From assembly GCF_003334815.1 (NCBI RefSeq), contig NZ_QOWO01000143.1: a DNA stretch of 213 bases. One strand, 5' to 3'. This document shows, piece after piece, positions 1-118 of the stretch. A program made the translations under genes and the position numbers. The notes under the pieces were generated by a model that was not told the DNA's origin, ran no database searches, and was given only the letters and a program-made list of their open reading frames with translations. Source of the stretch: Escherichia coli (GTDB lineage Bacteria; Pseudomonadota; Gammaproteobacteria; Enterobacterales; Enterobacteriaceae). Numbering within the stretch: the stretch's first letter is position 1; each line of letters starts with the position of its first letter.

Positions 1-76
1 CTCTCATATAGCCACACTTGTAGACCGAAAATCACGTTATACGATCATCCTTAGACTCAGGGGCAAAGATTCTGTC
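1..76 (+). mobile_element. IS30 internal fragment (IS30 family), truncated by the window at its 5' side and interrupted at 76/77 by another IS
   Basis: Plus-strand frame 2 (codons from position 2) translates to SHIATLVDRKSRYTIILRLRGKDSV, which matches from memory an internal segment of E. coli IS30 transposase InsI (roughly residues 239-263 of about 383). The match stops abruptly at position 76. Confidence 0.85.
2..76 (+). pseudogene. insI: IS30 transposase InsI, interrupted internal CDS fragment (25 codons); the in-frame TGA at 77-79 is supplied by the terminus of the adjacent IS
   Basis: 25 consecutive codons identical to the recalled InsI sequence (...ATLVDRKSRYTIILRLRGKDSV). The native protein continues SVNQALTDKF..., but here the frame reads V-stop followed by unrelated sequence. 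No start codon or N-terminal region is in the window. Confidence 0.8.
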
Positions 77-101
77 TGAACCGCCCCGGGTTTCCTGGAG
101 A
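77..101 (-). repeat. Terminal inverted repeat (IRR) of the IS3-family element, about 25 bp; outer terminus at position 77
   Basis: Sequence TGAACCGCCCCGGGTTTCCTGGAGA directly abuts the point where IS30 homology ends. IS3-family IRs begin with 5'-TG. The inner boundary (about 101) is approximate because the partner IR is not in the window. Confidence 0.7.
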
Positions 102-118
102 GTGTTTTATCTGTGAAC

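Follow-up and report, generated by a model that had tools for sequence, protein, structure and literature searches.

A probable insertion of an IS629/IS1203-group element into a resident IS30 copy, and related nested insertion sequences in Escherichia coli

Results

The interior of IS30 abuts the end of an IS3-family element

The window, by which we mean the whole stretch of 213 bp that was analysed, is made up of pieces of two insertion sequences (ISs). Bases 1–76 are the interior of an IS30 copy on the plus strand, as judged from their translation, from 100% identity to K-12 IS30 and from a match to the NCBIfam IS30 transposase model NF033563. They correspond to nt 794–869 in IS30 coordinates: insI codon 244 ends at position 1, and positions 2–76 are codons 245–269, which read SHIATLVDRKSRYTIILRLRGKDSV in plus-strand frame 2 and are followed by a TGA stop. 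Bases 1–77 are 100% identical to K-12-derived IS30 (E = 4e-31), with 77/77 matches to the IS30 of the K-12 derivative DH1Ec169 (locus L010) and the same identity in several other K-12-type genomes. The match of the window's 25 codons to NF033563 is weak (E = 0.0015), while the 269-residue InsI fragment of strain 67-1, described below, matches the model at 2e-36, above the curated cutoff. Pfam domains in full-length InsI are HTH_38 at residues 58–98 and rve at residues 229–320.

Bases 77–213, on the minus strand, are the last 137 bp of what appears to be a 1,310-bp element of the IS629/IS1203 group. The element starts in the window with TGAACCGCCCCGGG at position 77, and bases 77–101 (TGAACCGCCCCGGGTTTCCTGGAGA, minus strand) are its right inverted repeat (IRR), as delimited by an end-to-end comparison of the element in locus L002 (strain 67-1), the opposite end of which reads ...CCCGGGGCGGTTCA. 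The repeat is imperfect, about 22 of the first 25 bases matching the left end in L002, and the same termini are found in seven full copies. Further into the element, bases 119–213 on the minus strand translate as the 3′ end of an IS3-family orfB, which encodes the catalytic part of the transposase; the stop codon lies at 119–121, the last 30 codons (122–211) read RRLLERLGHTPPAEAEKAYYASIGNNDLAA, and the gene runs beyond the window. The transposase of the element is on the opposite strand to insI and convergent with it. Thousands of E. coli records contain IS3-family elements whose ends match bases 77–213, next to many unrelated flanks, and these alignments mostly begin at 76–77 (a few at 69–75) and run to 213, with E about 1e-63. 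A 5-bp GC-rich hairpin with a T-run at 86–98, within the terminal repeat, is a weak match to a terminator consensus and probably due to chance, and a 20-nt inverted repeat at 140–179 in orfB (75% complementary) is likewise weak and was treated as chance. Scans of the window against Rfam (E up to 1) and for sigma-70 promoters returned no hits.

In L002 the element has overlapping reading frames for OrfA (108 aa) and OrfB (296 aa). OrfB matches NF033516, the NCBIfam IS3 family transposase model, at 2e-91, OrfA aligns with the N-terminal portion of that model, and the RefSeq annotation of the 67-1 element includes a programmed frameshift and an AL1L pseudoknot. For naming we used phage records, since depositor annotation is kept there: the 67-1 copy aligns over all 1,310 bp with phage-record elements labelled IS629 at 95.6–96.0% identity, and one of the phage-record matches is annotated 'insertion sequence: IS3 family IS629, target site duplication AGG'. 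An earlier note on this DNA had called the intruding element IS629-like. Of the 137 IS bases in the window, 136 match an annotated IS629 (L006), with the same single-base distance to the copies in strain E2348/69 and locus L011, and 135/137 match a copy that PGAP names 'IS1203'. The L011 element is in turn 99.5% identical to the PGAP 'IS1203' copy, and the seven full-length relatives, all of them 1,310 bp long, share 94.5–99.5% mutual identity. On sequence grounds the intruder is an IS629/IS1203-group element, 137 bases being too few to separate IS629 from its IS1203 isoform. IS629 subtypes have been described as 4–5% apart, with IS1203 and IS3411 treated as isoforms, and IS629 as generating 3–4-bp target duplications at no sequence-specific target (Rump et al., PMC3271280), all of which agrees with the present data on identity and target-site duplication (TSD).

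The junction is gapless and rare

The two elements meet without a gap and share a single base, T77, which continues intact IS30 (...GTCT...) and at the same time opens the terminal TGAACC. Comparison with intact IS30 revealed no IS30 homology beyond 77, and no database element spans the whole window as one native sequence, the contiguous matches being only other copies of the nested junction. Translation and alignments thus bear out the view of the earlier note that the IS30 frame is intact to 76 and is followed directly by an IS terminus beginning TGAACC. The same is true of the layout it had anticipated, with IS30 over the first 76 bases and the IS629-like element over 77–213 on the opposite strand without gap or overlap, the only departure being the shared T77; neither of the two outcomes that it had named as contrary, a single element across the window or IS30 sequence continuing past 77, was found.

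With the whole window as a megablast query, 4,831 of 5,426 complete E. coli genomes were matched, and the features under the matches are 'IS30-like element IS30 family transposase' and 'IS3 family transposase'. Among the two-piece matches listed none has the junction, and the two halves lie at least 67 bp further apart than in the window. A junction query of 47 bases, positioned to keep any 28-mer seed from fitting one side alone, was found in just one of the 5,426 genomes, that of strain 67-1. The exact 41-nt junction was absent from species-representative genomes, viral contigs and metagenome contigs, and no 100% copy of the window is present in PLSDB plasmids or complete E. coli genomes. 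The nearest relatives of the 213 bases are L011 and 67-1, with three and five differences, respectively. Base T52 of the window is the K-12 IS30 base and is C in 67-1 and L011; T136 is C in the 67-1, E2348/69, EC12 and Stx2_499 copies and, among the loci compared, T only in L011 and L003. The combination of T52 and T136 is absent from every locus retrieved. A literature search found no paper describing this IS30::IS629 junction.

InsI is cut within its catalytic core

The IS terminus opens with TGA (77–79, plus strand) in frame with insI, so that the predicted product ends at residue 269 as a clean fragment with zero foreign residues. A 269-aa product is also encoded in 67-1 (L002 ORF 3226..4035), and the exact 269-aa InsI product is found on 83 contigs. 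The earlier note had placed the break at about codon 263, which is incorrect, the actual break being after insI codon 269; it had rightly taken the C-terminal part to be severed, the size of the loss being 114 of 383 residues (30%) and not a third. Since codon 269 falls within the rve core delimited by Pfam (residues 229–320), the cut passes through the catalytic core. From the DD(33)E spacing of the family the candidate catalytic residues are D237, D316 and E350 (motifs HWEGD, FCDP and QHELD); with this motif-based assignment D237 precedes the break, and D316 and E350 lie beyond it. The copy in the window lacks the uninterrupted ORF with all three DDE residues that an autonomous IS30 requires and, as the full transposase is no longer made, the interrupted IS30 should be inactive alone. 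In the related loci IS30 has intact ends, and IS30 reactions can depend on transposase provided in trans by other copies (PMC9333248; bioRxiv 10.1101/2023.06.07.543989). The interrupted IS30 can reasonably be expected to be non-autonomous and is possibly mobilisable in trans, in which case it would at most move via InsI from another IS30 copy.

Related loci place IS30 first and the IS629-type element second

The three IS30 bases that precede the junction are GTC (74–76; IS30 nt 867–869), which we interpret as the left copy of a TSD given that GTC stands on both flanks of the element in 67-1 and L012. Intact IS30 has a single GTC at this point (TTCTGTCTCAG) and reads TTCTGTCTCAGTAAAT across the site. 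The annotation of 67-1 (L002/L007) shows IS30 in two partial pieces, separated by a complete IS3-family transposase gene that runs on the opposite strand. The intruder there is 1,310 bp long, with TG...CA ends, imperfect terminal repeats and GTC on both sides; the left junction is TTCTGTC/TGAACCGCC and the right junction GGCGGTTCA/GTCTCAGTAAAT. Removing the element and one GTC from the 67-1 sequence gives a 1,221-bp IS30 with an uninterrupted 383-aa insI ORF, which makes IS30 the target and the IS629-type element the later arrival, the order proposed in the earlier note. The IS30 rebuilt from L011 is 1,221 bp as well, this length being that of the related loci only, since the window contains no IS30 end. 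The same junction is present in the assemblies of L008, L009 and L011, which were found via the exact 269-aa truncated product. Three loci (67-1, L011 and L012) have an element at this site whose far end can be seen; in each of them the element is complete, with TG...CA ends, and IS30 resumes directly on its far side. The left repeat copy in L011 reads GTT.

The identities of the two parts and their exact boundary are seen in the window itself, and the TSD and the IS30 reconstruction in other genomes with the junction. In our view the window very likely spans the left junction created by a simple transposition, in which a 1,310-bp IS629/IS1203-group element entered a resident IS30 and GTC was duplicated; the remaining IS30 of the window's genome presumably still lies beyond the element. 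The IS3 and IS30 families both transpose by copy-out-paste-in, with integration from a circular intermediate (bioRxiv 10.1101/2023.06.07.543989; PMC9333248), and this was probably also the pathway of the window's element, with the 3-bp repeat as its footprint. The incoming element would have integrated at IS30 nt 867–869, duplicating GTC, with its transposase genes facing insI, and insI would have been split after codon 269. A simple nested insertion predicts the sequence ...GGTTCA GTC TCAGTAAATCAGG... 1,310 bp downstream of position 77.

Other insertions in the same part of IS30

In L012 (5808–9387), L017 and L015 (left junction 5807/5808) the IRL end of an IS629 variant, in the opposite orientation to the window's element, abuts IS30 at the equivalent of window 74–77. 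Because GTC is present on both sides, the L012 element must have entered these 3 bp independently. It is 3,580 bp long since it encloses an RVT_1 + GIIM gene, encoding a group II intron-type reverse transcriptase/maturase (L012:7259–8782), which adds a fourth level of nesting. A different terminus, GTAAGCGTCAACGG... (GTAAGCG...), abuts IS30 at 5806/5807 in L013, L014, L016 and L018, corresponding to window 75/76; an IS66-family transposase gene adjoins this terminus in L013 and L014, and in all four loci GTG followed by TAA yields the same 269-aa InsI by codon coincidence. Locus L003 (NZ_CP037904.1) carries an IS629 variant (3589–4898; TSD CAG) with the terminus TGAACCGCCCCGATTTTCC, 12 bp further into IS30 than in the window, and the same junction, recognised as 225-bp single-piece matches, is common to many E. 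coli, Salmonella enterica and Shigella flexneri plasmids, of which the one inspected is IncF. In E2348/69 (L001:3279–4588, NC_011601.1) the IS629-type element lies 202 bp further into IS30 (TSD ACT).

The elements of 67-1 and L011 differ at 64 of 1,310 positions and the surrounding IS30 at 4 of 1,224 (L007 vs. L011), the differences running along the whole element (composite positions 870–2179). Either independent insertions by two IS629 subtypes or wholesale gene conversion could have produced this pattern. In a search for homologues of full-length InsI, the 120 matches listed are all near-full-length (337–630 aa), most of them 383-aa relatives with about 83–85% identity. The 630-aa match, a predicted protein (P0075), aligns with 84% of the InsI length at 100% identity and in addition has IS3-type rve_2/rve_3/HTH_21 domains, and is apparently a read-through fusion over another IS30/IS3-family junction.

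Alternative explanations for the junction

Could the junction be an assembly or sequencing chimera of two repeated elements? Both halves are multi-copy repeats and as such typical misassembly sites, and an exact copy of the whole window was not found; on the other hand, the base-exact junction recurs in independent assemblies that include a closed chromosome, with the far-end TSD matching, and a chimera would not reproduce a TSD together with a clean IS terminus. The TSD and the IS30 reconstruction led us to reject this explanation, which is extremely improbable. The reverse order of events, with IS30 inserting into an IS3-family element, is even harder to credit. The two elements do abut, and these loci have IS30 inserted in IS3-family elements at other places, but at the junction it is the outermost terminus of the IS3-family element that is intact and IS30 that is broken mid-gene, 869 nt from its own left end; the reverse order is refuted by the fact that removal of the IS3-family element restores IS30 and not vice versa. 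More has to be said about a history in which the insertion came first and was followed, in the window's genome, by an element-mediated deletion, inversion or recombination that left the far side without the 3′ third of IS30. The window shows one junction only, the other end of the element being outside, and IS629 has been linked to genomic deletions (PMC9943667). In addition, the IS629-type element of EC12 (L005), which lies 67 bp further into IS30, has non-IS30 DNA on its other flank and no TSD, so that a later rearrangement is conceivable for the window's strain too. Against this, IS30 resumes directly, with the GTC repeat, in 67-1, L011 and L012, where the element is at the exact site and its far end is visible, making a secondary rearrangement quite improbable; were it to have taken place, it would leave the nature of the 76/77 junction unchanged.

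A different question is whether the simple insertion was guided by its target, i.e. whether IS30 nt 867–869 and the next dozen bases are a preferred IS target and the window is one recurrent, targeted event. Several observations point this way: the same 3-bp target holds two IS629-group subtypes 4.9% apart (67-1 and L011), an IS629 variant sits in the opposite orientation at the same GTC (L012), an IS66-family end is found 1 bp upstream of the window junction (L013, L014, L016 and L018), and another IS629 variant occurs 12 bp downstream in widespread plasmids. However, most of the events at the site came to light through look-ups of the exact 269-aa product, a procedure biased towards this codon, and the difference between 67-1 and L011 could reflect gene conversion from one IS copy to another. 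Truncated InsI proteins of many lengths (e.g. 243 aa on 73 contigs) make up a cluster of 3,498 distinct members, although many of these are labelled partial because of contig ends and need not be insertion breakpoints. Chance coincidence at one site is therefore a live explanation, given the very large number of InsI breaks of many lengths. Moreover, the site is occupied in 1 of 5,426 complete E. coli genomes, others carrying the element at +67 and +202, with match spans suggesting further offsets, and IS629 has been reported to lack sequence-specific targets (PMC3271280). Overall, we regard repeated targeting as possible but doubtful. The more far-reaching proposal, that IS30 nt 867–881 are a real IS hot spot and/or that the 269-aa InsI fragment is kept for interfering with IS30 transposition, seems unlikely to us. 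The fragment retains both HTH DNA-binding regions, its catalytic core is broken and nothing foreign is appended to it; if the proposal were true, one IS family would be repeatedly disarming another.

The IS30 copies lie within IS3-family orfA sequences

In the related loci, IS30 copies are located directly after codons for (E/D)ILKKA, with the DNA motif ATATTAAAAAA(A/G)GCNNC, in an A-rich slippery region. This insertion point is seen in four different IS3-family orfA sequences and in both orientations: the sequence concerned is the 30 bp upstream of IS30 in L002/L007–L009, L005/L019, L012/L015/L017 and L013/14/16/18, and in the downstream flank of IS30 in L001 and L011. The rebuilt IS30 target of L001 is GAAATATTAAAAAAGGCT[AC]CGCGCTC, with a 2-bp repeat. 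The 2-bp repeats flanking IS30 are GT in L001 and CT in L010, and the attack points of IS30 on the two target strands are 2 bp apart (PMC9333248). These locations suggest that IS3-family frameshift windows may be a target hot spot for IS30, and the insertions after (E/D)ILKKA are consistent with the known preference of IS30 for particular hot-spot sequences (PMC9333248).

We considered whether E2348/69 and 67-1 share one IS30 copy and rejected this since the flanks differ. E2348/69 and L011, by comparison, share their IS30 flanks save for two bases beside the IS30 right end, while the positions of their IS629-type elements differ, that of L011 being at the window's site. With shared flanks and different element positions, the same nest seems to have received two insertions, in different lineages.

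Discussion

The junction described here is an already known kind of event between known elements, and public genomes already contain it, annotated as a partial IS30 transposase beside an IS3-family transposase. The assessment of the earlier note that it is a common signature of genome plasticity and not a novel system agrees with what we find, i.e. a routine IS-into-IS event. Its importance lies mainly in annotation, the inactivation of one insertion sequence by another being routine genome plasticity in E. coli: IS30 fragments ending at residue 269 are products of insertion and not a distinct gene. The rarity of the exact junction (1 of 5,426 complete E. coli genomes) makes it a practical lineage marker. 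The repeatedly used 3-bp site and the nest of orfA, IS30 and IS629-type element would be of wider interest only if targeting is true.

IS629 and its isoforms IS1203 and IS3411 are abundant in EHEC O157 and Shigella. The intruder resembles them in the 1,310-bp length of its relatives, their TGAACCGCCCCGG... termini, the orfA/orfB organisation with a programmed -1 frameshift, and the 3-bp TSD, and the spread of the related full copies over 94.5–99.5% identity corresponds to several subtypes. Compared with IS30 itself (K-12 insI, the prototype of its family), the window is identical over the 76–77 bases present, and the IS30 of its relatives has 1,221 bp and encodes an InsI of 383 aa that combines N-terminal HTH domains with an rve core; unlike a functional IS30, the window's copy is broken after codon 269 and is thus a disrupted copy. 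IEE promotes the excision of IS629 and other copy-out-paste-in ISs, and IS629-type elements between 3-bp repeats have been described as substrates for its precise excision (bioRxiv 10.1101/2023.06.07.543989; PMC9943667). The 3-bp-flanked IS629-type element here fits that substrate type, and its excision could in principle restore insI.

When an IS lands in another IS the host presumably pays no price, and such insertions would be tolerated for that reason. As in other nested ISs ('IS graveyards'), the related loci are layered, forming three-level nests in which an IS3-family orfA (one read as IS2) contains IS30, which in turn contains the IS629-type element. From such nests the present locus does not differ in kind, its sole oddity being a 3-bp site that has been used more than once.
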